Shown: positions 1 to 16,256, numbered from the stretch's first letter. The stretch is DNA of 64,000 bases from an uncultured Paraprevotella sp. (GCA_964540455.1 CAZIMK010000002.1:39643-103642), one strand, 5' to 3'. A program made the numbers and translations. Notes: generated from the letters alone by a model not told the origin.

Positions 1-108
1 GAACATCGACGACCCGGAATAACTCCTCCTATATATGGGGCTGACAACAAATATAATTTTTAATCCATAGCCCCTCTAAACAATTCATTATTTATATAAC
101 CCAATAAA

Positions 109-2172
109 ATGAGCAAATATACCAAAGTAAAAGTATCTACATTTATTGATGGATTGGATCAAATTTTATATGATGGTCTTGATTTGTCACGCAATCATAC
201 ATTAATAATTATTCGGGGGGGGGAGCACACTGAGAAAACGTTGCTTGGACTCCAGATGATGTATGGCATTGCTCAAGACCTAAATAACAATGAATACCCT
301 GTCGTTCCTTGCTTTTATACCAATCACTATAGTTGCGAATATATAAACGATCTATTACTAGATATAATAATAACAAAATGTATCCAATTGATGACAATAC
401 TTTATGTATCCAATCATAATACTGGATCGTTTCAAGACAATCTATTTTCACAACTTTTTTTCAAAACACCAAACAACCAAAATTTTAATTATCAATTACA
501 AGAAATAGACAATCTAATATGCCAAGAGGCAATATATTATAGTAATCGGACCAATGCCCTACACTATCGAACAACGGAGAACTACACCCATGATGAGAAT
601 TTTATTGTAGAACGCAGAGGTGAGGGAATTTCAGACTATTTTAATAAAGGCTCAAGATCTAAGGACCAGCAGATTAATAAACTAAAAAAATTAAGTAATC
701 GACTTAAATACCCGCTAATCGATAGTAAAACTGAAAATTTTAACAGTAAAAACATAACAGATTTAAAAAATGAGATCAGCAGTCATGACTATGATGCCAC
801 ATCCTTGGTTGCTTGTTATGATTTAATCTTTTCTTCCTTTAAAAACTTTTCACATATAACAGAGTTACTAAATAGCATTAATCAAAAACATAAAGTAGCT
901 TTGGTAGTTATACCAGACAACATACCCTTGTCAAATTTATACGCGGACATGATAATAGATCTCACGAACAAGGACGTAGAACATTATACTCTTCAATATC
1001 TTTGTATAACAAGATGCATTTTCCAGCTTACAGCAAAAGGTTGGCATCAATACAAACGTCGAGACTATGGCATAGAAATATTTCCGAGCATAAATACTTA
1101 TTTTTCCAAACGGCGCTATCTCCAGAGGGCGCTAGTGTACACACATTCCGATGTAGTAACTGATACATATCAGCAATATCTTGATTCGTTAGGGGTATCA
1201 AAATACCATTCAGGCGAGTATCGTGAATATACAGAAAATAAAGAACGCCGAAAGAAAGAATACATCAATGATTTACTCTCTCCGGAAATCTCTTATAATA
1301 CATCTATAGATATCCTTGAGAAAATTCTTCTTTCCCGAGGAAAAGATAATGGCATGCAAAACAAGAACGGCATACCGTTAATGAGACGTCGCGACTGCAT
1401 AAAATTATTTCGTGGCGGTGTCACTGCCATCATAGGGGAAGCCAATACTTACAAACGCTTTATAACTTTTGGAAGTATATTCAGTTCTTCACTCCAATAT
1501 GAACATTCCCTGATACTGCTTTTAAATAAAGACACAAGCATGACACGCAGGCGATTGTCGTGTCCGGCGATGATGCATAGCGGCACTTGCAGGAATGAAA
1601 AATGCGCACAATGTTATTCCTATATTCATTTTATGAATATTTTCATGGGAAATATAACATCTGACGAATTTATTTATTTTCTCCGCAGGCAGGTTAGTAT
1701 TCCATTTACGGATGGTCAACGCATAAGCAGGGTGATTATTGACGATCTCCAGATTCTTGATTTTTGTTTTCCTCTCTTGAAGAACGACCCATTGTTTGTT
1801 CCATCCTTAGCCGCACTCTGCCATGAACTTGATATAGATTTGTATATATTGTGTGATCGGGAAGCAGAAGCCACTTATAAACTTCGAGCGATAGCTGATA
1901 ATGTATTGTGTACGGAAAGAGATACTGACGGTGCGCTTCTATTATATATAGAACGTTTTGCTGGTTATGATAATACACCAAGCAAAATATACTGTGGCAA
2001 GATAAAACGGCCAAAAGAAATCTTTGAATGTTATGACATATCCGAAGAAAATGGACAAATAATACGCCAATATGGCATCAATGACGAACATATAGAAGAC
2101 CGTTCTGTGGTTTCTATGAATGAGTTTTGGTATGGCAGAAATAATCCTTCTTTTAGAAAAACAAAAAAATAG
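109..2172 (+). CDS. Tandem KaiC/RadA-like (RecA-superfamily) ATPase-fold protein with degenerate P-loops
   Basis: 687-aa ORF. The N-half 'STFIDGLDQILYDGLDLSRNHTLIIIRGGEHTEKT' and C-half 'LFRGGVTAIIGEANTYKRF...RVIIDDLQILDF' follow the KaiC/RadA layout (GLD..L.GG, P-loop, hhhhDD Walker B). 'ITRCIFQLTAKGWHQYKRRDYGIEIFPS' resembles the KaiC-type strand ending GI.VFP. Both Walker A boxes deviate from GxxxxGK[ST]. Family call is by motif recognition only. Confidence 0.55.
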   Translation: MSKYTKVKVSTFIDGLDQILYDGLDLSRNHTLIIIRGGEHTEKTLLGLQMMYGIAQDLNNNEYPVVPCFYTNHYSCEYINDLLLDIIITKCIQLMTILYVSNHNTGSFQDNLFSQLFFKTPNNQNFNYQLQEIDNLICQEAIYYSNRTNALHYRTTENYTHDENFIVERRGEGISDYFNKGSRSKDQQINKLKKLSNRLKYPLIDSKTENFNSKNITDLKNEISSHDYDATSLVACYDLIFSSFKNFSHITELLNSINQKHKVALVVIPDNIPLSNLYADMIIDLTNKDVEHYTLQYLCITRCIFQLTAKGWHQYKRRDYGIEIFPSINTYFSKRRYLQRALVYTHSDVVTDTYQQYLDSLGVSKYHSGEYREYTENKERRKKEYINDLLSPEISYNTSIDILEKILLSRGKDNGMQNKNGIPLMRRRDCIKLFRGGVTAIIGEANTYKRFITFGSIFSSSLQYEHSLILLLNKDTSMTRRRLSCPAMMHSGTCRNEKCAQCYSYIHFMNIFMGNITSDEFIYFLRRQVSIPFTDGQRISRVIIDDLQILDFCFPLLKNDPLFVPSLAALCHELDIDLYILCDREAEATYKLRAIADNVLCTERDTDGALLLYIERFAGYDNTPSKIYCGKIKRPKEIFECYDISEENGQIIRQYGINDEHIEDRSVVSMNEFWYGRNNPSFRKTKK
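215..223 (+). repeat. G9 homopolymer inside the first P-loop codons of the KaiC-like gene
   Basis: Counted directly: att cgg ggg ggg gag (I R G G E). Nine consecutive G in an otherwise AT-rich gene. Currently in frame. Confidence 0.9.
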
Positions 2173-2178
2173 AGTGTA

Positions 2179-3216
2179 ATGTTTAAAGAATTTATACATT
2201 GGTTTCACAAGGAAAAATTCCAGATTCTCCTAACCATATTTTCAGCTTTAATACCCGTTTTTTTCTCATTAGCAATAGAATCTCTACAGTTCAAATCGTG
2301 TTGCAATAAAGAAAGTCTCTACTGGAATTTCACACTTAAGGACACAGCCAATTATGCAATACAAAGCATTTTTATATTCATAACACTTTTCGTACTGATA
2401 AAAAATAAGCGCATTGCCTATGCAGATTTAAGAAACGACAGACCTATAAAACAATATTTAGTTAAAGTTTGCCGTTTAAAAATACCTTATAATAAAATTA
2501 TAGATGAAAAATTCCACGTTATAAGCGAAGCCACAATGCAGTTTTACCGTACATGGATGTTTGTCTGGATTTTATGGCTGGCATATTATGTAGGGAATTT
2601 GATATTTGAGCTTGCTTCGGAGCCGAACGACCGTATCATGATAGCTCAAGCTATATATACTCAATTATTTGATTTTCTTAATAGCACGGCAATGTTTGTC
2701 ATATATCTCGTATTAACAAATGTGACAGTAAACATCCGTCAGCGTACGGACAATGACGAAAGTTATTGGTATGGTGTTATAACATGGATTATAATGCTTT
2801 CAATATTCATTATTTGCGTAGCTTTTGAAATCTGTTGCGGTAAAGGCCATTTCGCTTTCTGTCGGTATGTAACCTCTCTTGTCTTAAGTTTGTTTTCAGC
2901 CATATCTTTCATGCTAGTAATAGGCAAGCTCAATAGTATCTATTTGCAAATACCACAACTCTTCCTATGGGCACTATATTTATATGGGATACTGCAATGT
3001 TATGTTCCCATTTCGTTATTAAAAACAGGAGACATAGGTTGTATCGGCACATGTGTTAAAAATATCATACCGTATGTAACCCTTATAGGAAAAGTGTTTT
3101 TGATGTTGTCTCTTTGTTGGATTGTCAATCATAAGCGTATTATATATTATATTATTCATCAAAGCCTTTTAATTGAAGATACGCCAAGAATGCTCAAAGA
3201 ACTTAATAGAGAATAA
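2179..3216 (+). CDS. Polytopic membrane protein, unknown family
   Basis: 345-aa ORF starting 6 nt after the upstream stop, so probably the same operon. About 8 long hydrophobic segments (e.g. 'ILLTIFSALIPVFFSLAI', 'WMFVWILWLAYYVGNLIF', 'VITWIIMLSIFIICVAF'). No family motif recognised. Confidence 0.7.
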   Translation: MFKEFIHWFHKEKFQILLTIFSALIPVFFSLAIESLQFKSCCNKESLYWNFTLKDTANYAIQSIFIFITLFVLIKNKRIAYADLRNDRPIKQYLVKVCRLKIPYNKIIDEKFHVISEATMQFYRTWMFVWILWLAYYVGNLIFELASEPNDRIMIAQAIYTQLFDFLNSTAMFVIYLVLTNVTVNIRQRTDNDESYWYGVITWIIMLSIFIICVAFEICCGKGHFAFCRYVTSLVLSLFSAISFMLVIGKLNSIYLQIPQLFLWALYLYGILQCYVPISLLKTGDIGCIGTCVKNIIPYVTLIGKVFLMLSLCWIVNHKRIIYYIIHQSLLIEDTPRMLKELNRE

Positions 3217-3283
3217 CAGACAAGTAAACTATAAAAATTAATTTATGCCAAGCCACATTGGCAAAATTTATTTCAAGACCAGA

Positions 3284-4262
3284 TCAAAGCGCGGCCAAAG
3301 CTCTGTTGGTTGCATAAAGCAAGGAATCTGTGAAAACAGAATCCACTGGTCTGAGCCATTTGCCCTTGAGGATTCGCCACAACATCTCAGCTATATTCAG
3401 ATAAGGAGTATATGACGGAAGAAAGAAGAGAAAAAGCCTCGCTTCTCCCAATGATCCGAAGCTCCCACATGAGTCTGCATCTGTGTATACTGGCATTATC
3501 AAGTACCACAAATGTATCCTTCTGAATACGCAGCGACACAGCCGACCAAGAAAATCAGCTATCTTGTCAGCCATCATATTCTCCGCTGTAGAGAAACCAT
3601 GATATCGGTTGTTCCAGTCAATAATGCCGAAAATATTGAATCTGAGTCCTCTTTTAGATGGGAAGTGGACATCCTCATTGCGGAGCTGCCAATCATACGG
3701 CACAGAACCTTCGGTGCTGATATGACTTTCATCTCCGTAATAGAGGATGAGTCCGGCAAATGCCTGTTGTTTGAGTTCTTGCAGTTTCTCGGTTTTATAC
3801 GTATAGATGCAGCGGCGAGGGTTTACCTTGGGGTGTTTCCTTATACGCCAATGCGGAAAAAAAGCCCTAAAAGTGTTCTCGTTCGCCTCCTTGCCGGAGG
3901 TCTGCTGCTAGACTATTTTCGCTTTCTTCACACTCTGCCTATCGTTCTCGATGACAATGCGCACAGCTTCTTCGTTCGGACAGTCCATGATTGATTTCCC
4001 CCGTCCTGGACGTGTCCCTAGTCCACGGATACCTTCTGTCTTGAAGCGTTTTACCCAGAATTTGAATGACATATGTCATTTCTATCTGTAATCCAACTTA
4101 CTCTGAAGTCAGACCGATTGATTTTAGAAGCACGGCGCGACAACACATGCGAGAAACGTGGCTCTTGCCGTGGCGAAAGCCATTCTCTAATTGCAAACAT
4201 TGCTGGTCTGTCAGTTGTATAACATTGATTCTTGCGATAGTAGTAAATGTTCATGCCTATAA
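3284..4262 (-). pseudogene. IS630-family (DDE_3) transposase, frameshifted and with an in-frame stop
   Basis: Minus-strand translation gives typical IS630 segments: 'LTDQQCLQLENGFRHGKSHVSRMCCRAVLLKS', 'LILYYGDESHISTEGSVPYDWQ', 'KDTFVVLDNASIHR' and 'LFLFFLPSYTPYLNIAEMLWRILKGKW'. These lie in different frames, and an in-frame TAG sits at 3908-3910. No intact start codon was found. Confidence 0.8.
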
Positions 4263-6459: not shown

Positions 6460-7905
6460 ATGGAGAAATCGTTAAAAAGCAATGCCATTTTTGGAATGGC
6501 CTGGACCGCAATGGAGCGTTTCGGACAGCAATTTCTCAGACTGATTATCGGGATAATAATAGCACGTATCCTTGAACCGTACATGTTTGGTATTGTAGGT
6601 ATGACGGTCATATTTACAGATTTGGCCCAATCGATCCTCGACAGCGGTTTTGGCAGTGCCCTGATTCAAAAAAAAGACAGAGACGAAACAGACTATTCCA
6701 CCTGTTTTTATTTCAACGTCGTTGTCGGATTAACTCTATATATAGTGCTATTCATGTCGGCACCATATATAGCAGATTTCTATCATACGGAAGAACTTGT
6801 CAATGTAATCCGGATCATCTCCATCGGATTTGTACTCAATTCTCTTATTATCTCACAAAACGCCAAATTATCTGTAGAATTCAAGTTTAAAGTTTCTGCC
6901 ATCATAAACGTTACTTCATATTTAATCTCCGGTGTTGCAGGTATTGTTTTAGCATATACGGGATTTGGGGTATGGGCACTTGTTTTTCAACAGGTTTTAG
7001 CCTGTCTTTTAAGAGTGTTTTTTATTGAAATATATACCCGCTGGATACCTTTACTGGCTTTCTCAAGGAATTCTTTCAACTATCTTTTCAATTTCGGAAG
7101 CAAGGTATTGGTTTCCGGTTTCTTATTCAGCATTTATAACAACTTGTACACACTGGTCATCGGACGTATATTTGCTCCCGCAGAAGTGGGACATTACAAC
7201 AGGGCCAACCAGTTTGCCGCCTTACCCTCAAGTACTTTAATCGGGATTGTCATGAAAGTCGCATATCCTTTAATGTCTAAAGTGCAAGATGACACAAACC
7301 GTTTACGCCGTAGTTACCAAAAATTTCTGCGCCTGCCTATATACATAATTTACCCCATTTTAGTAGGATTGATCGTATTGGCAGAACCCTTTATCGTTCT
7401 GTTGATCGGCGAAAAATGGATTTTTTGTGTTCCTCTTCTGCAAGTATTGGCATTCGGTTATATGTTTGACCCGCTGACTCAAGTCAATCTGAACATATTA
7501 TATGTGAAGGGGCGGACAGACCTTGTGTTGAAATTAGACATCATCAAACGTATTATAGGTCTGGGTATTTTATTTTCAACAATACCTTTCGGCATTTGGT
7601 GGCTGTGTTTCGGACGTTCCGTTTATGGTCTGATAGCTTACAGCATTAATTGTTATTACACCGGGAAATATATTGATTTCGGTTTCTGGGAGCAAATGAA
7701 ATACAATATTCCTCTATTTGTCAAAGCTGGTATAATGGGGGTGTTATGTTATGTCCCGACCCTTTTTACTCCCAATTATTACTATCAATTAATATCCGGT
7801 ACAATAATAGGGATTATCAGTTATTGGGTCATATCTGTCATCACCCATGATGAGAGTTATAATGATTTAATTGAGATAATAAAATCAAGAAAGAAAAAAG
7901 CATAA
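6460..7905 (+). CDS. wzx: Oligosaccharide flippase (MOP/Wzx family)
   Basis: 481 aa, about 12-14 hydrophobic helices. The N-terminus 'NAIFGMAWTAMERFGQQFLRLIIGIIIARIL' is typical of polysaccharide-biosynthesis (Wzx) proteins. Confidence 0.85.
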   Translation: MEKSLKSNAIFGMAWTAMERFGQQFLRLIIGIIIARILEPYMFGIVGMTVIFTDLAQSILDSGFGSALIQKKDRDETDYSTCFYFNVVVGLTLYIVLFMSAPYIADFYHTEELVNVIRIISIGFVLNSLIISQNAKLSVEFKFKVSAIINVTSYLISGVAGIVLAYTGFGVWALVFQQVLACLLRVFFIEIYTRWIPLLAFSRNSFNYLFNFGSKVLVSGFLFSIYNNLYTLVIGRIFAPAEVGHYNRANQFAALPSSTLIGIVMKVAYPLMSKVQDDTNRLRRSYQKFLRLPIYIIYPILVGLIVLAEPFIVLLIGEKWIFCVPLLQVLAFGYMFDPLTQVNLNILYVKGRTDLVLKLDIIKRIIGLGILFSTIPFGIWWLCFGRSVYGLIAYSINCYYTGKYIDFGFWEQMKYNIPLFVKAGIMGVLCYVPTLFTPNYYYQLISGTIIGIISYWVISVITHDESYNDLIEIIKSRKKKA

Positions 7906-11066: not shown

Positions 11067-12074
11067 ATGACTCCAAAAATTTCTATTTTAGTTCCAGTCT
11101 ACAACGTGGAACCTTATCTCCAGCGTTGTATCGACTCCGTGTTGAGCCAGGATTTCACCGATTGGGAACTCATCCTTGTGGATGACGGCAGTCCGGACCG
11201 TTGTCCGGAAATATGCGACAGGAATGCCGCAGAGCACCCCGATAAGATAAAGGTGGTGCACAAGGAGAACGGGGGGGTTATCACAGCACGAAAAACAGGA
11301 GTGCAAGTCGCAAAAGGTGAATATTACGTTTTTGTGGATAGTGATGACACATTGCGAGCAGGGGCATTGAGTACTCTTTATGCCCAAGTGATAAAAGGGT
11401 ATGACATGGTAAGAGCCGGAGCTTTTAGAAAAACTGGCAAAGGCAAGGAATATCCCATAGAAACATATGCCTTTGAGGAAGGAGAGATAACGGACAACAC
11501 TGCGTTCATTCAGAAAATGTACATGTGCGATGTCGCTCCTTATCTATGGGGTGCAATTTACAAAGCATCATTATTTAACGATGATGTATATGATGAGCCG
11601 ATAAAGCAAAGGGTAAATATTGGTGATGATTGGGTGATAAACATGATTATTGCCCGCAATATTCATCGAGCTCTGTATATCAAGGATAAGGTATATGATT
11701 ATTATGTGAACCCTAAGTCATATATGTCATCCTACGTAATGTCATATGAATACGGGAATAAAATAGATGCCATATTTCAGAAACATGGTATAATATATAA
11801 TGACAGTAAATTGACAGATTATATACGAGTAAAGACATGTTGCGACACATTAAGTAAGTTCTTTGTGCCTGAAATTCCATTTTCCGTTCAAAGGTACAAC
11901 TATGTGAAAAAGACACTTTCTGCTGCAAAATGGAACAAAATGGTAAGAGAACGTATACATCCCAAATATTTGTATTTCATCAATCACTATATCATATATC
12001 GGATTTACATAGGTTTATATAGGTTTATATTCAAATACGTCAAGTTGCATGGAAACTATAGAAAGGTTATATAG
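11067..12074 (+). CDS. Family 2 glycosyltransferase
   Basis: 'ISILVPVYNVEPYLQRCIDSVLSQ' and 'VDSDD' are GT2 signatures. The start was moved to the ATG at 11067; the upstream extension from 10953 is Arg-rich nonsense over the hairpin. Confidence 0.85.
   Translation: MTPKISILVPVYNVEPYLQRCIDSVLSQDFTDWELILVDDGSPDRCPEICDRNAAEHPDKIKVVHKENGGVITARKTGVQVAKGEYYVFVDSDDTLRAGALSTLYAQVIKGYDMVRAGAFRKTGKGKEYPIETYAFEEGEITDNTAFIQKMYMCDVAPYLWGAIYKASLFNDDVYDEPIKQRVNIGDDWVINMIIARNIHRALYIKDKVYDYYVNPKSYMSSYVMSYEYGNKIDAIFQKHGIIYNDSKLTDYIRVKTCCDTLSKFFVPEIPFSVQRYNYVKKTLSAAKWNKMVRERIHPKYLYFINHYIIYRIYIGLYRFIFKYVKLHGNYRKVI
11271..11277 (+). repeat. G7 homopolymer in GT2 gene
   Basis: Counted directly: gag aac ggg ggg gtt. 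Confidence 0.9.
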
Positions 12075-12084
12075 CTACGAGTGT

Positions 12085-13071
12085 ATGCCAAATGAAATAC
12101 AATCAAAAGAAAACAGCCCTAAAGTATCGGTCATTATACCTATATATAATGTAGAACGATTCATAAAGCGTTGTGCGGAATCTTTAATGAAGCAGACGCT
12201 AAATGATATGGAATTTATATTTGTAGATGATTGTTCTTCTGACAATAGCATAGATATACTAAAGAGAATAGTTGAAGAATATCCCAATAGGAATGTATCT
12301 GTACTGAAACAACCTGTCAACCGGGGAGTATCAGCCGCCCGCGAATTAGCGTTATCTAAAGCAACGGGTAAATATATAGGATTCTGTGATAGTGATGATT
12401 GGGTCGATATTGATATGTATGAGAAGCTCGTGAAACTTGCCGAGCTGTCATCCGCAGACATTGTTGGTTGTGGATTTATTCTACATACTCGAAACAAAAT
12501 AGAAGAATGTAAATTCCCGTCAAACCATGATAACAAAGGTTTTATTTTCTCACCCCATTGCTTTGGTGGTATTTATGGCGCATTATGGAATAAGCTAATA
12601 CGTCGGGATTTTTTCTGCTTGTACGACAAGAAAATGTGGAAAGGAATAGCAATGTGGGAAGATAGTTGTATGCTGACACCGCTCCGGCTTCATTCGTCAA
12701 AAACTGTATTTATAGATGAATGCTTGTACCATTATAATGTCAATACCAATAGTATGACAACTAAATTCTCTATAAAAAAAGTTAATGATGCCATTGAAGC
12801 AACCAAAAGACTGGAATACTATTTCCTAACGGAAGGACTTACCGAAGAAGCTGCTTCACTTGTCTCATTCTTAAAAATAGCATCTAAAGAAGTCTTACTC
12901 CGTTTTCCCCGAAAAGAATACATAAGAATGTGGAAAAAGATTTTTCCAGAGGCAAAATGGCACATCATGCAATATCCGAACTGGGGGGGGGGGCTAAAGG
13001 CAAGGGCTTTATTAGTTACATTTCTTCCCATTTCATTAGGGATTAAATTGCTTAAAATAAAAAAGAAATGA
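12085..13071 (+). CDS. Family 2 glycosyltransferase
   Basis: 'VSVIIPIYNVERFIKRCAESLMKQT' and 'CDSDD'. The start could equally be 12049 or 12085. Confidence 0.8.
   Translation: MPNEIQSKENSPKVSVIIPIYNVERFIKRCAESLMKQTLNDMEFIFVDDCSSDNSIDILKRIVEEYPNRNVSVLKQPVNRGVSAARELALSKATGKYIGFCDSDDWVDIDMYEKLVKLAELSSADIVGCGFILHTRNKIEECKFPSNHDNKGFIFSPHCFGGIYGALWNKLIRRDFFCLYDKKMWKGIAMWEDSCMLTPLRLHSSKTVFIDECLYHYNVNTNSMTTKFSIKKVNDAIEATKRLEYYFLTEGLTEEAASLVSFLKIASKEVLLRFPRKEYIRMWKKIFPEAKWHIMQYPNWGGGLKARALLVTFLPISLGIKLLKIKKK
12983..12993 (+). repeat. G11 homopolymer in GT2 gene
   Basis: Counted directly: aac tgg ggg ggg ggg cta (N W G G G L). Confidence 0.9.
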
Positions 13072-14126
13072 TACATGATTCCACCATCAGCGTCATGAAA
13101 GGGATCGCCATCATAGGTGTAGTCGTTGGGCATTGTAGAATTTCACAATGGGCAGAAAATTTTGTCAACCAATGGCATCTGGCGACATTCTTCTTTGTGG
13201 CGGGTATGTGCTTCAAAGATAAATATACTTCACAACCCCAATTATATATCAAACGGAGAATGAGAAGTCTCTATGTGCCCTTCGTGGAGTTCGGCCTGCT
13301 ATACTTGGCCCTGCACAATTTCCTTTATTGGATTCATTGCGCCGGCAATGCTTACACATTTCGTGAAATGGGACGTGAGTTATTCAATCTGACCATACGC
13401 TTTTCAAGCAATGAAGCTTTGATGGGGGCCATGTGGTTTTGTCCGGCTCTGCTGTTTACATCTATTATTATGTTTCTTACACAAATTACGCAAACAAAAA
13501 TCGATAAAACACTAAATAACAATAAAATAGAAGTTAATGGGGGGGGGAGGAGGATTATTCCGACATTGGTTTTTATTGTCGGTTATACGGCCATACAGTT
13601 ACGCATTAAAAGTCCTTGTTGTATATGGCAATATATGGTTCTCTCGCTCATAATTCAGATGGGATATTGGTTCAAGCGTTATGTAAATGCAGACAAATGG
13701 AATACAATGACTCACATCGCTATAGCCACAACGGGATTTACACTCATAGCTCTTGCCACAAATTATGGATTTATGGCAAGGTTACAACCAGCCAACATAA
13801 ACAAAGAAAACATAATAGCATTGTTATTGATACCAGCATTGGCTGGAGTGTCTGTATATAGCTTGTCTGCTTTATTAAATAAAACTAATATGAAACAGAC
13901 ATTGGCTTACGTCGGTGACCGATCGTTCTCCATTATGGCCTTGCATTTTCTTGCTTTCAAAGCGGTGAACCTTGCACAAATAGGTTTCTATGGATACAGT
14001 ATAGAACGTTTGGCCGACTTTGCGGTCATAAGATATGAGACGTGGACATGGGGATTGGCCTATGTCGCAGCAGGTGTGACCATCCCCTTGATATTGGCAT
14101 TGACATACAATAAGGTAAAACGATGA
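13068..14126 (+). CDS. Membrane acyltransferase (acyltransferase_3 family, O-acetylase type)
   Basis: 352 aa, about 10 hydrophobic helices. N-terminal 'VMKGIAIIGVVVGH' is typical of the family. ATGA overlap with the upstream gene. Confidence 0.8.
   Translation: MIHDSTISVMKGIAIIGVVVGHCRISQWAENFVNQWHLATFFFVAGMCFKDKYTSQPQLYIKRRMRSLYVPFVEFGLLYLALHNFLYWIHCAGNAYTFREMGRELFNLTIRFSSNEALMGAMWFCPALLFTSIIMFLTQITQTKIDKTLNNNKIEVNGGGRRIIPTLVFIVGYTAIQLRIKSPCCIWQYMVLSLIIQMGYWFKRYVNADKWNTMTHIAIATTGFTLIALATNYGFMARLQPANINKENIIALLLIPALAGVSVYSLSALLNKTNMKQTLAYVGDRSFSIMALHFLAFKAVNLAQIGFYGYSIERLADFAVIRYETWTWGLAYVAAGVTIPLILALTYNKVKR
13539..13547 (+). repeat. G9 homopolymer in acyltransferase gene
   Basis: Counted directly: aat ggg ggg ggg agg. 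Confidence 0.9.
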
Positions 14127-15064
14127 TAACAGGAATTGTAGTGGTGTCGTACCACAACGCAGATGGTACTTCAAAATATGTCATGAAACAGCTGATGCGG
14201 CTTTCTGACGACTATCGCGTAGTAGTAGTGACCGTGGATGCCGACGAGCGATACGGACAGAAACTGGCTACTGATTGCGGGCTTGCCTTTATAAATACCC
14301 CGAAACAGGTTGTGCAGCACTCTAAGGGATGGTGCATAGCCGCGAAAGAAAACTTGGGGTATGCCAAAGGAAACAACCTGGGTGTAGAAATCCTGAAAAA
14401 CAGTGGCATTCACTTTGATTATTATTTATTTTCAAATGATGATATAGAAATTATGACTCCCGATGCACTAAGCAAATTGGGTAATGCCATAAGAAAAGAT
14501 GAAAACATAGCCGGCATCGGTCCCCGCATCATCGGACTTGACGGTAACGACCAAAGTCCGCACATCCGATACATTTCTCCCCAGAGGCTGATTGGATGGA
14601 AGTTACTTTCCTTTCTACGCAAAAAACAACGAAACAGTGCTATATACACCAATAAAAGTTCTCTCTCCGTGGCGGAAGTCTCGAAAGCACAACAAGAGAA
14701 GTTTACAGCAACACAAGCCATTACACTGGCTTCGAAAAATCCTCCGCCCCAAGGTGCATGCTACTGGGTTAGCGGGGCTTTCATGATGGTAAGGTCAGAC
14801 CGGTTTGAGGCCGTGAATGGCTTCGATCCCCGCACGTTCCTCTATTTTGAGGAAGTCATACTGGCGGAACGCTTCATACGGCATGGATGGCATTTTGCCT
14901 TTGAGCCTTCAGCGATAGTAGTTCACTACGAAGGGGGAAGTACTACCGTAAAGAGTAGCAGGCGCAACGCGATTGAGAAGGAAAGCAGGATGCTGTATTA
15001 TAAGGAATACAGACGAGTAAATACTATTCTGCTATGGTTGTACAAATGGATTGAACAGATATAG
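14123..15064 (+). CDS. Family 2 glycosyltransferase
   Basis: 313 aa with 'GIVVVSYHN', 'GYAKGNNLG' and 'FSNDDIEI'. ATGA overlap with the upstream gene. Confidence 0.8.
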   Translation: MITGIVVVSYHNADGTSKYVMKQLMRLSDDYRVVVVTVDADERYGQKLATDCGLAFINTPKQVVQHSKGWCIAAKENLGYAKGNNLGVEILKNSGIHFDYYLFSNDDIEIMTPDALSKLGNAIRKDENIAGIGPRIIGLDGNDQSPHIRYISPQRLIGWKLLSFLRKKQRNSAIYTNKSSLSVAEVSKAQQEKFTATQAITLASKNPPPQGACYWVSGAFMMVRSDRFEAVNGFDPRTFLYFEEVILAERFIRHGWHFAFEPSAIVVHYEGGSTTVKSSRRNAIEKESRMLYYKEYRRVNTILLWLYKWIEQI

Positions 15065-16256
15065 AAAACTCAAAACCATGAATCCCATAACATATAATTA
15101 CAAATTATTTAAAAATCTGTATCCCAAAGAGATACAGTTGTACACACTGATATTTACGTTTCATATCTGTCGCAAGACTCTTTTCAACAGCGCCAACGAC
15201 GGTAGTACCGGTGGTCAGTTGATGATGGTATTATGTATTCTTTTAAACTTTTATATCGTCTACAAAGAGAAGAAACATCTCAAACAGGCATTAACGAACA
15301 ACAGAATGTATTTGGCTTATTATATTTTTGCCATATTCACGATATTTACAAACAATATTACCGGTTCCGCCACTGTCATCCTGCCAAAAGCCTTAGAAGT
15401 AATATCTTCATTTATGGCGTTGTCTATAACGTATTGGAAAATAAAAGAGAAACGATGGGCAATGATTTATTTATTATATCTTACCACAATAGCGACTGTA
15501 GCTGGGTATATCAGCTATGCAACAAACTCAGGCTCATTATGGGCGCATACTAATACCTACAGCATGACAGGGGCCCTTGGGGCCTTGTTATGTCTGAGTA
15601 TGAGCAAATATGAAAGGAAGTTCAGATTCAAGTGGCTGTTTGTTTTCAATTTCTCCGCAATGATTCTTGGAACGAGTTCCGCTTCATTTATTGCTTTTAC
15701 TGTCGGACTTTTAATGTTTTGGAGTTGCTCTATTAAAGGTATTAGCATAACCAAGGCCTCTTTGGTGCTAATAGCTGTCATCATCACATATTACAATGGA
15801 ATGGACTTAGCATATGATATATTCTTCCACGGACGATCAGAAGAAATGATCCAGTCCGGTACAGGTCGTACCGTCATCTGGGAAGCTTGCTTTACTGCTT
15901 GGCGTCAGTCCCCGTGGATTGGGCAAGGCTACATGATAGGTGAACGTAATCTCACAATGTGGGGGGCTCACATAGCTGCCCATTCTGCCCATAATGGATA
16001 TATGTCAGTATTGGTAAATACAGGCATTGTAGGAAGTATCATCTTTGGCGTTTATCTCCTGCAAACCATTTGGAGATGCTTGAATAACCTATCATCTAAA
16101 TATATAGGGAAAGAAATGACTGTCCTGTTCATTACATTGTGCTTCATCCTTGTGAACAACTACTCATACCCCTGTATAGGTTCCGATTGGAATTTTACGC
16201 TGATGCCTGTAGCCAGTATATTCATTCTAATTAATACCATACAATATAAATTATGA
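15051..16256 (+). CDS. O-antigen polymerase/ligase-like (Wzy-type) membrane protein
   Basis: 401 aa, 10 or more hydrophobic helices with a large loop ('GRTVIWEACFTAWRQSPWIGQGY...AHSAHNGYMSVLVNTGIVG') typical of the O-antigen ligase/polymerase domain. Confidence 0.75.
   Translation: MNRYRKLKTMNPITYNYKLFKNLYPKEIQLYTLIFTFHICRKTLFNSANDGSTGGQLMMVLCILLNFYIVYKEKKHLKQALTNNRMYLAYYIFAIFTIFTNNITGSATVILPKALEVISSFMALSITYWKIKEKRWAMIYLLYLTTIATVAGYISYATNSGSLWAHTNTYSMTGALGALLCLSMSKYERKFRFKWLFVFNFSAMILGTSSASFIAFTVGLLMFWSCSIKGISITKASLVLIAVIITYYNGMDLAYDIFFHGRSEEMIQSGTGRTVIWEACFTAWRQSPWIGQGYMIGERNLTMWGAHIAAHSAHNGYMSVLVNTGIVGSIIFGVYLLQTIWRCLNNLSSKYIGKEMTVLFITLCFILVNNYSYPCIGSDWNFTLMPVASIFILINTIQYKL

Follow-up and report, generated by a model that had tools for sequence, protein, structure and literature searches.

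Full-length KaiC, in which two RecA-like domains stand in tandem, is the best structural match that we found for the larger product of a two-gene cassette at the start of a DNA stretch from an uncultured Paraprevotella sp. (GCA_964540455.1, CAZIMK010000002.1:39643-103642; the whole 64,000-nucleotide stretch is called the window here). The first gene, A, encodes a tandem protein with the fold of KaiC and archaeal KaiC-like proteins (PF06745), and the second, B, a polytopic membrane protein. On balance, we read the pair as a two-gene conflict module that is self-contained and moves horizontally, most likely an anti-phage system of the abortive-infection (Abi) type. The likeness of A to KaiC extends to sequence in two places, namely an N-terminal 'GLD..L.GG + P-loop' segment and a terminal 'GI.V.P' hairpin. 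In other respects the two proteins differ: they are only ~10% identical, with a Pfam score below the gathering cut-off; the Walker A motifs of A read GxxxTEKT and GxxNTYKR; and the positions of the KaiC glutamate pair, as placed by the model, are occupied by 'TNH' and 'NKD'. Moreover, A carries a large helical insertion in its N-domain, a linker of ~100 residues and a Cys/His cluster in its C-domain, and in place of KaiA and KaiB its partner is a membrane protein or, in relatives, a SIR2 protein.

Among described defence systems, SIR2-HerA (Nezha) and DUF4297-HerA offer the closest parallel in architecture, as both comprise two genes encoding a ring-forming NTPase of the ASCE (additional strand, catalytic glutamate) type and an exchangeable effector, the counterpart of which in the relatives of A is SIR2. 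The expected outcome in both cases is depletion of nicotinamide adenine dinucleotide (NAD+). Here, however, the NTPase-like component has a KaiC/RecA fold rather than the FtsK-HerA fold, its nucleotide sites are degenerate, and the clade of the window lacks any SIR2. The possibility that A is itself a HerA was rejected, given that no PADLOC HerA model matched A or the A-like protein of locus L079 and that the top 50 structural matches were all KaiC; since A is not a HerA, its SIR2-type relatives are not SIR2-HerA/Nezha systems. CBASS (cyclic-oligonucleotide-based antiphage signalling system), Pycsar, Thoeris and Lamassu likewise share with the cassette a conserved sensor or regulator, alternative effectors (a transmembrane protein or an NADase), a mobile cassette form and a location in defence islands. 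They differ in that the cassette contains no cyclase, TIR or SMC signalling component, and in that B is a large bundle of eight transmembrane segments with no effector relative in PADLOC beyond a 34-residue match at chance level.

Two further comparisons concern gene arrangement. In archaea the gene for the KaiC-like protein ArlH (FlaH) adjoins that for the polytopic membrane protein ArlJ (FlaJ), which an earlier note, made from the nucleotide sequence of the window alone, had offered as the nearest analogy. The analogy did not hold up, as B shows no family or fold similarity to T2SSF/ArlJ. In addition, ArlH is a single-domain, ATP-binding protein, whereas A is tandem with degenerate sites, and no further archaellum or pilus genes lie near the cassette. 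UpxY and UpxZ share a genomic address with the pair, which follows an UpxY-like gene in the window and UpxY-UpxZ in loci L063, L065, L066 and L071; nonetheless, the pair is unrelated in sequence or fold to NusG/UpxY or UpxZ and is also found far from capsule loci.

With respect to novelty, the earlier note knew of no described system that joins a double KaiC-like protein to a membrane protein of this kind, and none emerged from PADLOC, Pfam, NCBIfam or the literature search. Specifically, no model covering A, B or the specific SIR2 partner is present in PADLOC v2.0.0, Pfam (2025) or NCBIfam (June 2026); the PADLOC comparison that the note had proposed gave no meaningful match for A or B, and the SIR2 partner returned only weak PDC-S25 and SIR2 matches in PADLOC-DB v2.0.0 (E 3e-4 to 3e-3). 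A full-text literature search turned up no paper that connects KaiC-like proteins to SIR2 or to anti-phage defence, and a 2026 domain-centric defence screen (PMC13069673) does not mention KaiC. The introduction to that screen describes Sir2 domains as NAD+-consuming effectors in many defence systems and module exchange as a hallmark of such systems (PMC13069673). We therefore put forward the pair and its relatives as a candidate undescribed family, a probable two-gene immune module of the NTPase-plus-effector kind, built on a KaiC chassis and equipped with a new putative membrane effector. The features of the two genes in the window are as follows.

109-2172, + strand: open reading frame (ORF) A, 687 aa, ATG start; tandem KaiC-fold protein with degenerate P-loops ('pseudo-KaiC')
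130-1089, + strand: N-terminal RecA/KaiC-like domain of A, ~residues 8-327, from AlphaFold2 (AF2) secondary structure and alignment to KaiC CI
217-240, + strand: degenerate N-domain Walker A GGEHTEKT, residues 37-44, with Glu in place of Gly before Lys
1090-1407, + strand: inter-domain helical linker of A, ~residues 328-433, disordered at 413-433
1408-2133, + strand: C-terminal RecA/KaiC-like domain of A, ~residues 434-675, from the AF2 model and Foldseek
1435-1458, + strand: degenerate C-domain P-loop GEANTYKR, residues 443-450
1561-1629, + strand: Cys/His cluster C485...C499-x2-C502...H507 in a C-domain insert, invariant in 41 homologues
1729-1746, + strand: Walker-B-like strand RVIIDD, residues 541-546, D545 invariant
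2179-3216, + strand: ORF B, 345 aa, ATG start; all-helical membrane protein with eight transmembrane segments

The ORF calls agree with the earlier description of two frames of 687 and 345 aa on the + strand, separated by a 6-nt spacer. Because more than 450 homologues of A were recovered and B directly follows A in 68 loci, both are conserved genes and not chance ORFs. The nearest homologue of A, at 88% identity, comes from a Paraprevotella metagenome-assembled genome (MAG).

An AF2 model of A, built on an alignment of 41 homologues that also underlies all calls of invariant positions, is of good quality (predicted local distance difference test (pLDDT) 82, predicted template modelling score (pTM) 0.82). 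When this model was compared with the Protein Data Bank (PDB) by Foldseek, full-length KaiC chains were matched over both halves of the protein, the best being 7s65_B (E 2.3e-19, probability 1.0). Every one of the top 50 matches was to KaiC, with E-values of the KaiC chains from 2e-19 to 1e-17, 640-725 aligned columns and template modelling (TM) scores of 0.55-0.71 relative to the target. These results confirm the two RecA/KaiC-like halves that had been read from the sequence, the structure prediction and Foldseek search suggested at that time having returned a KaiC fold at E 2e-19. In a profile-to-PDB search, the family pattern G-x-x-x-T-E-K-T aligns with the KaiC CI P-loop GTSGTGKT, and 'DYGIEvyP' aligns with the KaiC strand '..HGINIFP'. 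The N-domain of A closes with this KaiC-type hairpin, QYKRRDYGIEIFPS, in which H313, Y315, D319, G321, E323 and P326 are invariant. By family models the relationship is far fainter: PF06745 reaches 21.2 bits against a cut-off of 26.6 and covers only the N-terminal residues 9-56, and with the NCBIfam KaiC models only 15-18 bits are reached where the cut-offs lie at 307-408. Thus, A has the KaiC fold, yet it fails the curated KaiC thresholds and motif criteria.

The canonical Walker A motif GxxGxGK[ST] is present in neither domain, as the earlier note had recognised for GGEHTEKT and GEANTYKR, and the deviations are conserved across the clade. In the N-domain the clade-wide pattern is GxxxT[ED][KR]T, which puts an acidic residue where Gly precedes Lys, and in the C-domain it is GxxN-T-[YF]-K-R, with G443, N446, K449 and R450 invariant. 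Given that both non-canonical P-loops are common to the whole clade, their degeneracy is a selected trait rather than local decay, and the 'pseudo-KaiC' label of the earlier note is correct. The positions of the KaiC catalytic Glu pair read 'FYTNH' in the N-domain and 'LLLNKD' in the C-domain, assignments that were made from the strands of the model and not from a residue-level superposition. Conservation is also pronounced outside the nucleotide sites. The linker contains a near-invariant segment, RRYLQRALVYTHSD, and C485, C499, C502 and H507 together form a putative zinc site; this cluster is retained, with an additional Cys-rich insert, in the SIR2-linked clade.

A run of nine G residues at 215-223 falls exactly on codons R36-G37-G38 of the N-domain P-loop. 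Four metagenomic contigs show the same tract length, and the Paraprevotella MAG with the 88%-identical A lacks the tract. Other coding G tracts in the window are G11 at 12983-12993 (in a glycosyltransferase ORF), G9 at 13539-13547 (in an acyltransferase ORF) and G7 at 11271-11277, and only one further G/C run of at least 8 occurs within the 64 kb. Such G tracts may serve as slipped-strand on/off sites.

For B, a hydropathy scan finds eight transmembrane segments, and its AF2 model, for which the alignment was a shallow one of nine sequences, shows an all-helical bundle (pLDDT 74.5, pTM 0.77), in keeping with the eight-segment protein described in the earlier note. Applying the positive-inside rule to the model's helices, we predict an N-in/C-in topology; the conserved residues lie mostly in the predicted cytoplasmic loops and in the cytoplasmic C-terminal helix, elements that include residues 86-112, 181-193 and 320-345. 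No Pfam family matched B at E<=1, no NCBIfam model matched it, and its sole PADLOC match was a chance-level one of 34 residues to a '4TM effector' model (E 0.004). The structural comparison that the note had likewise proposed for B gave nothing in the PDB below E 0.08, the top matches being generic bundles of seven transmembrane helices with TM scores of 0.2-0.4. A word-indexed homologue search, which included a 27-sequence profile, returned 14 clusters, all unnamed, and gave no evidence of B outside the context of A. We consequently regard B, at the level of its predicted model, as a novel fold of eight transmembrane segments with no structural or family match. Candidate roles for B as a flippase, Wzy polymerase or acyltransferase were rejected, since no Polysacc_synt, Wzy_C, Wzz/GNVR or Acyl_transf_3 match was found in family or fold; B is also not the flippase, polymerase or acyltransferase of its locus because these are encoded separately in the capsule locus of the window.

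One line of evidence for the defence interpretation comes from the partners that A keeps elsewhere. A total of 102 loci with an A-family gene (designated by L numbers) were collected and analysed alongside the window by our own ORF calling, clustering and profile searches, and synteny was counted over the 87 sequences that extend at least 1.1 kb past A. A homologue of B lies directly 3′ of A in 68 of these 87, the gap for intact copies of B being -41 to +27 nt, and the remaining 19 lack B. All 19 instead carry a SIR2_2 (PF13289) gene directly 5′ of A, with a 4- or 16-nt overlap between the two genes in the gut clade. The synteny of A and B that the earlier note had proposed to check is thereby repeated in other genomes, with the exceptions being SIR2-partnered. 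The SIR2 partner keeps the motifs GAGIN, TYNYD/TYNFD and IYHIHG, which correspond to the motifs for NAD binding and catalysis (Asn/His) in ThsA and other defence sirtuins.

An exhaustive profile search extended the family to 956 A-family clusters at E<=1e-3 (197 at E<=1e-30), and in seven of seven remote members, drawn from different sub-branches, SIR2_2 (PF13289) is again immediately 5′ of the A-like gene. With 19/19 B-less loci and 7/7 remote members in agreement, gene order indicates that the broad family is a SIR2 plus tandem-KaiC-like operon, with a SIR2_2 gene immediately 5′ of the core gene in most members. The nucleotide sites follow a gradient across the family. In distant clades the N-domain Walker A is canonical (G[KE]PGTGK[TS]T) and is accompanied by a Walker B of the form hhYEDE, but the C-domain is already degenerate; GxRGxHKT is found in intermediate clades and GxxxTEKT in the clade of the window. 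The simplest reading of these sequences is that the ancestral state was the SIR2-containing operon and that one derived clade lost SIR2, gained the downstream B and degraded its N-domain site further. Members of the proposed family can be recognised by four motifs in A, namely a C-domain [GN]xN[ST][YF]K[RF], the CPA..CxxC..H cluster, an hhhhDDLQ strand and the hairpin QYK.RDYGIE.[YF]PS, and by an operon with exactly one partner, either B downstream or SIR2_2 upstream. All of these motifs are present in A of the window, and B follows 6 nt downstream; the window cassette lacks a SIR2 gene, SIR2_2 being seen in sister and remote clades only.

Individual copies add some detail. In five loci (L013, L014, L027, L040 and L066) B is split over two frames next to an intact A, which could reflect pseudogenisation, phase variation or assembly error. 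Locus L018 (3351-9910) contains two tandem A-B pairs (A 716 aa, B 364 aa, A 677 aa, B 405 aa) adjoining a subtilase gene, either a duplication or two stacked cassettes. When fused effector domains were sought by Pfam in the longest remote A members (900-1077 aa), none was found, only better KaiC/P-loop matches. Human, rodent and rumen metagenomes of Prevotella/Bacteroidales commonly contain the family, and cluster P0089 alone was seen on 552 contigs. No member was found on IMG/VR viral contigs, a result that is neutral for the interpretation of the pair.

The genes that surround the cassette are in many cases those of defence and mobility. In independent lineages it adjoins PDC-M62A/B (Septu-like), a DrmC-like phospholipase D (PLD) protein and an LmuA-like metallo-beta-lactamase protein, and its neighbours also include HEPN_LA2681 with a KAP NTPase, a C5 DNA methylase with a HATPase_c_3 protein, and AIPR, AAA_15/AAA_21 ATPases, a ResIII helicase and ArdC. 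Mob_Pre and DUF1896 lie near the cassette in one locus and SocA_Panacea in another, and within two large Prevotella groups the gene after B changes from strain to strain among defence genes. In L017 and L053 the A-B pair is flanked by opposite-strand genes, which marks it as an autonomous unit. In most loci the pair has a lower G+C content (GC) than its flanks, for example 0.41/0.38 vs 0.56 in L016 and 0.35/0.33 vs 0.46 in the window.

Three additional genes recur next to the cassette. A gene of ~370 aa with an NTP_transf_5 domain (PF14907, 'uncharacterised nucleotidyltransferase') lies 5′ of A in 28 loci (L027-L058 and others; e.g. L037 8603-9718), usually as the last gene of a capsule locus and 80-250 nt before A, with a PLD/NgoFVII-like gene between the two in some loci; it is a candidate for a capsule gene, a third component or a separate defence gene. 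A metallo-beta-lactamase-fold gene, whose best PADLOC match is LmuA (E 3e-11), starts 0-12 nt past B in L031, L032, L035, L043, L050, L054 and L055 and may be a third cassette component in that Prevotella sub-clade. Finally, two tandem OmpA-domain proteins (~410 aa) and a 717-aa GLUG-motif protein are encoded downstream of the SIR2 plus A-like pair at the 3′ end of the capsule locus in L067, L070 and L084.

Our preference for a conflict module rests on a conserved core whose effectors exclude one another and include an NADase of the defence type, together with cassette mobility, a defence-island address and occasional decay. An accessory, defence-type role, as the earlier note had envisaged, is the best supported by the SIR2-partnered relatives, by the defence and mobile-element neighbours and by the behaviour of the pair as an AT-rich cassette. 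Judging from its fold alone, A would assemble into a KaiC-like ring. In the window's clade it would have lost normal ATPase chemistry and act as a sensor, scaffold or latch, and it may read an infection cue through the invariant Cys/His cluster or the inter-domain linker. Once triggered, A would release or activate its partner. In the SIR2-type relatives, activation of that partner would deplete NAD+, and B, if it is the effector, would perturb the inner membrane by depolarisation or leakage and halt phage replication at the cell's expense. In this scheme we infer the oligomeric state, the trigger, the action of the effector and defence itself. In Prevotellaceae, capsule operons often contain or adjoin the cassette in the same orientation, so that it is probably transcribed together with a given capsule type.

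Several observations weigh against this interpretation. PADLOC-DB v2.0.0 contains no family for A and none for the A-like protein of the SIR2 clade, and B is a large, well-conserved bundle of eight transmembrane segments, unlike the small effectors of known systems with one to four. The neighbour annotation derives from greedy ORF calls with one representative per gene cluster. Most importantly, capsule genes share the locus in at least 13 of 27 lineages, these being groups at 85% identity whose count hinges on the contigs that the scans returned, and three more capsule-linked cases are L089 (a Xylanibacter muris genome record), L091 (Bacteroides congonensis) and the P0151 clade. The cassette is mostly on the same strand as the capsule genes and often sits mid-operon with short spacers, and such embedding could reflect a capsule-related function. 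Capsule loci occupy only a few percent of a Bacteroidales genome, and an association seen in about half of the lineages is thus far from random.

In terms of position, the cassette follows UpxY/UpxZ genes in the window, in L063, L065, L066 and L071, where the pair comes after UpxY-UpxZ (UpxZ PF06603, E 6e-47), and in L052, where it comes after UpxY and a 144-aa gene. Mid-operon copies on the operon strand are found in L005 (between Wza-Wzc-CpsB and rmlACD), L060 (between a Wzy-like gene and a GT1 gene) and the X. muris locus L089 (between sugar-activation genes and a flippase). Copies at the 3′ end of capsule loci occur in L040, L055, L067, L069, L079 and L091, and SIR2-type clades are represented within capsule loci by L067, L069, L079 and L103.

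This distribution invites the explanation that the pair is an accessory regulator or assembly factor of capsule loci, in which B would sense or handle a lipid-linked or envelope intermediate and A would relay the signal to capsule synthesis or to cross-regulation between loci, in a role beside UpxY/UpxZ. We consider it unlikely on the whole, even though the window pair stands directly after an UpxY-like gene, other lineages place it after UpxY-UpxZ or inside capsule operons on the operon strand, and SIR2-type clades (L067, L069, L079 and L103) share the habit. The cassette is also found where no capsule genes are visible, on elements capable of conjugation or mobilisation and adjacent to restriction or Abi genes; remote SIR2-type members lie in unrelated contexts (L093 and L094); and within capsule loci the position is not fixed, being at the 5′ end, the middle or the 3′ end. 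Nor does B supply a missing standard component, as a flippase, Wzy, an acyltransferase and glycosyltransferases are already encoded in the window locus, and B itself matches no Wzx, Wzy, Wzz or acyltransferase in family or fold. The NADase partner of the relatives fits capsule assembly poorly as well. The earlier note had stated that consistent embedding in capsule loci as ordinary biosynthetic or regulatory genes would speak against its proposal, and here the outcome is mixed: the pair does reside inside or beside capsule operons in about half of the lineages, the window included, but the description as an ordinary biosynthetic gene fails, the pair being found also as an independent cassette carried by mobile elements and adjoining restriction or Abi genes. 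Should the capsule-regulator explanation be correct, the pair would represent a new class of capsule-locus component.

A two-gene cassette that swaps its effector would also suit an addiction or stabilisation module, or another conflict system (directed at plasmids, integrative and conjugative elements or other bacteria), in which a toxin-like membrane or NADase effector is held in check by the pseudo-KaiC and maintains the variable region in which it resides. Mobile-element carriage (ArdC in L017, Mob_Pre in L101), the Panacea-type antitoxin-domain gene (SocA_Panacea, PF13274) that adjoins the cassette in L103 and the split copies of B are all compatible with such a module. A is, however, far larger and more conserved than typical antitoxins, and the classical anti-phage neighbours (Septu-like, HEPN, KAP and AIPR) favour immunity, though not decisively, and we estimate this explanation to be rather improbable. 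Least credible, and in our judgement very improbable indeed, is a housekeeping-type membrane signalling hub, as proposed for archaeal KaiC-like ATPases, or a docking pair resembling ArlH/ArlJ. The KaiC fold, the tight coupling to a polytopic membrane protein and a weak similarity of the A N-terminal segment to FlaH/ArlH models (NF004723, E 0.069) would accord with it, but both P-loops are degenerate, neither reaches any curated cut-off, and B has no T2SSF/ArlJ match. A patchy, AT-rich and mobile distribution with variable flanks, and relatives that carry a SIR2 partner, are likewise at odds with a housekeeping role. The survey of loci speaks against the pair being a single-copy core element of a genus at a constant chromosomal site.

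If the pair is indeed a defence system, the KaiC branch of RecA-like proteins would join a small set of ring NTPase immune sensors, B would constitute a new effector fold of eight transmembrane segments, and the natural variants with an NADase or a membrane protein on one chassis would lend themselves to mechanistic work. Given its abundance, the family could shape phage-host dynamics in the gut and the outcomes of phage therapy. A bolder and rather doubtful extension is that of a widespread immune family in which a KaiC-fold ring sensor fires either a SIR2 NADase or the new membrane effector and is wired into Prevotellaceae/Bacteroidales capsule operons such that immunity is switched along with capsule type. 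The N-domain of such a ring would be competent for ATP in distant clades and degenerate in that of the window. Capsule type would set which phages adsorb, and receptor variation and intracellular defence would then be joined in one transcription unit.

Defence and toxin-antitoxin genes recur in or at the ends of Prevotella-type capsule loci (L055, L045, L033, L039, L103 and related loci), specifically PDC-M62/Septu-like genes, HEPN_LA2681, KAP NTPase, AIPR and SocA_Panacea, which suggests that these loci act as immune islands.

In the window itself, the cassette is bounded by the following features.

1-22, + strand: 3′ end of a gene for an UpxY-like (NusG-type) capsule-operon antiterminator, outside the cassette
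3246-3263, + strand: weak terminator-like hairpin 30 nt past the B stop, a consensus match only
3284-4072, - strand: decayed IS630-type transposase between the cassette and the capsule biosynthesis genes, fragments in separate short ORFs
6460-7905: Polysacc_synt_3 flippase, capsule locus of the window
13068-14126: Acyl_transf_3 protein, capsule locus of the window
15051-16256: Wzy_C protein, capsule locus of the window

The AT-rich block that the earlier note saw beginning after the 3′ end of another gene is evident in the composition, as GC is 0.30-0.39 across 1-3250, 0.42-0.46 immediately downstream and 0.54 over 20-64 kb, with nt 1-22 proving to be the end of the UpxY-like gene. The complete gene (207/217 aa) is present in the longer metagenomic contigs L001-L004, which have identical A and B genes; there it stops 86 nt 5′ of A, and its product is related to UpxY/NusG (28% identity, E 1e-8, to the PF02357 UpxY that heads the L005 capsule locus). 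Terminator-like sites in the region number 6 against 2.4 expected. A sigma-70 promoter scan was uninformative (20 sites vs 17 expected), the consensus leaving Bacteroidales promoters uncovered.

The decayed IS630 transposase that had been described as closing the block is likewise present on the minus strand, as DDE_3 (PF13358, E 7e-10) at 3287-3703 and HTH_28/HTH_32 at 3911-4072. It is followed by a standard Wzx/Wzy capsule locus comprising an IspD-like cytidylyltransferase, an epimerase, the Polysacc_synt_3 flippase, a LicD protein, the acyltransferase, glycosyltransferases and the Wzy_C polymerase. In the Paraprevotella MAG locus L008, one short ORF and then a flippase gene come after B, at the place where the window has the IS630 remnant. 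Further downstream, the GC-rich (0.54) part of the window at 20496-64000 contains very long minus-strand ORFs of 855, 1353, 834, 1529, 1436 and 666 aa, which are overlapped by long ORFs on the opposite strand.

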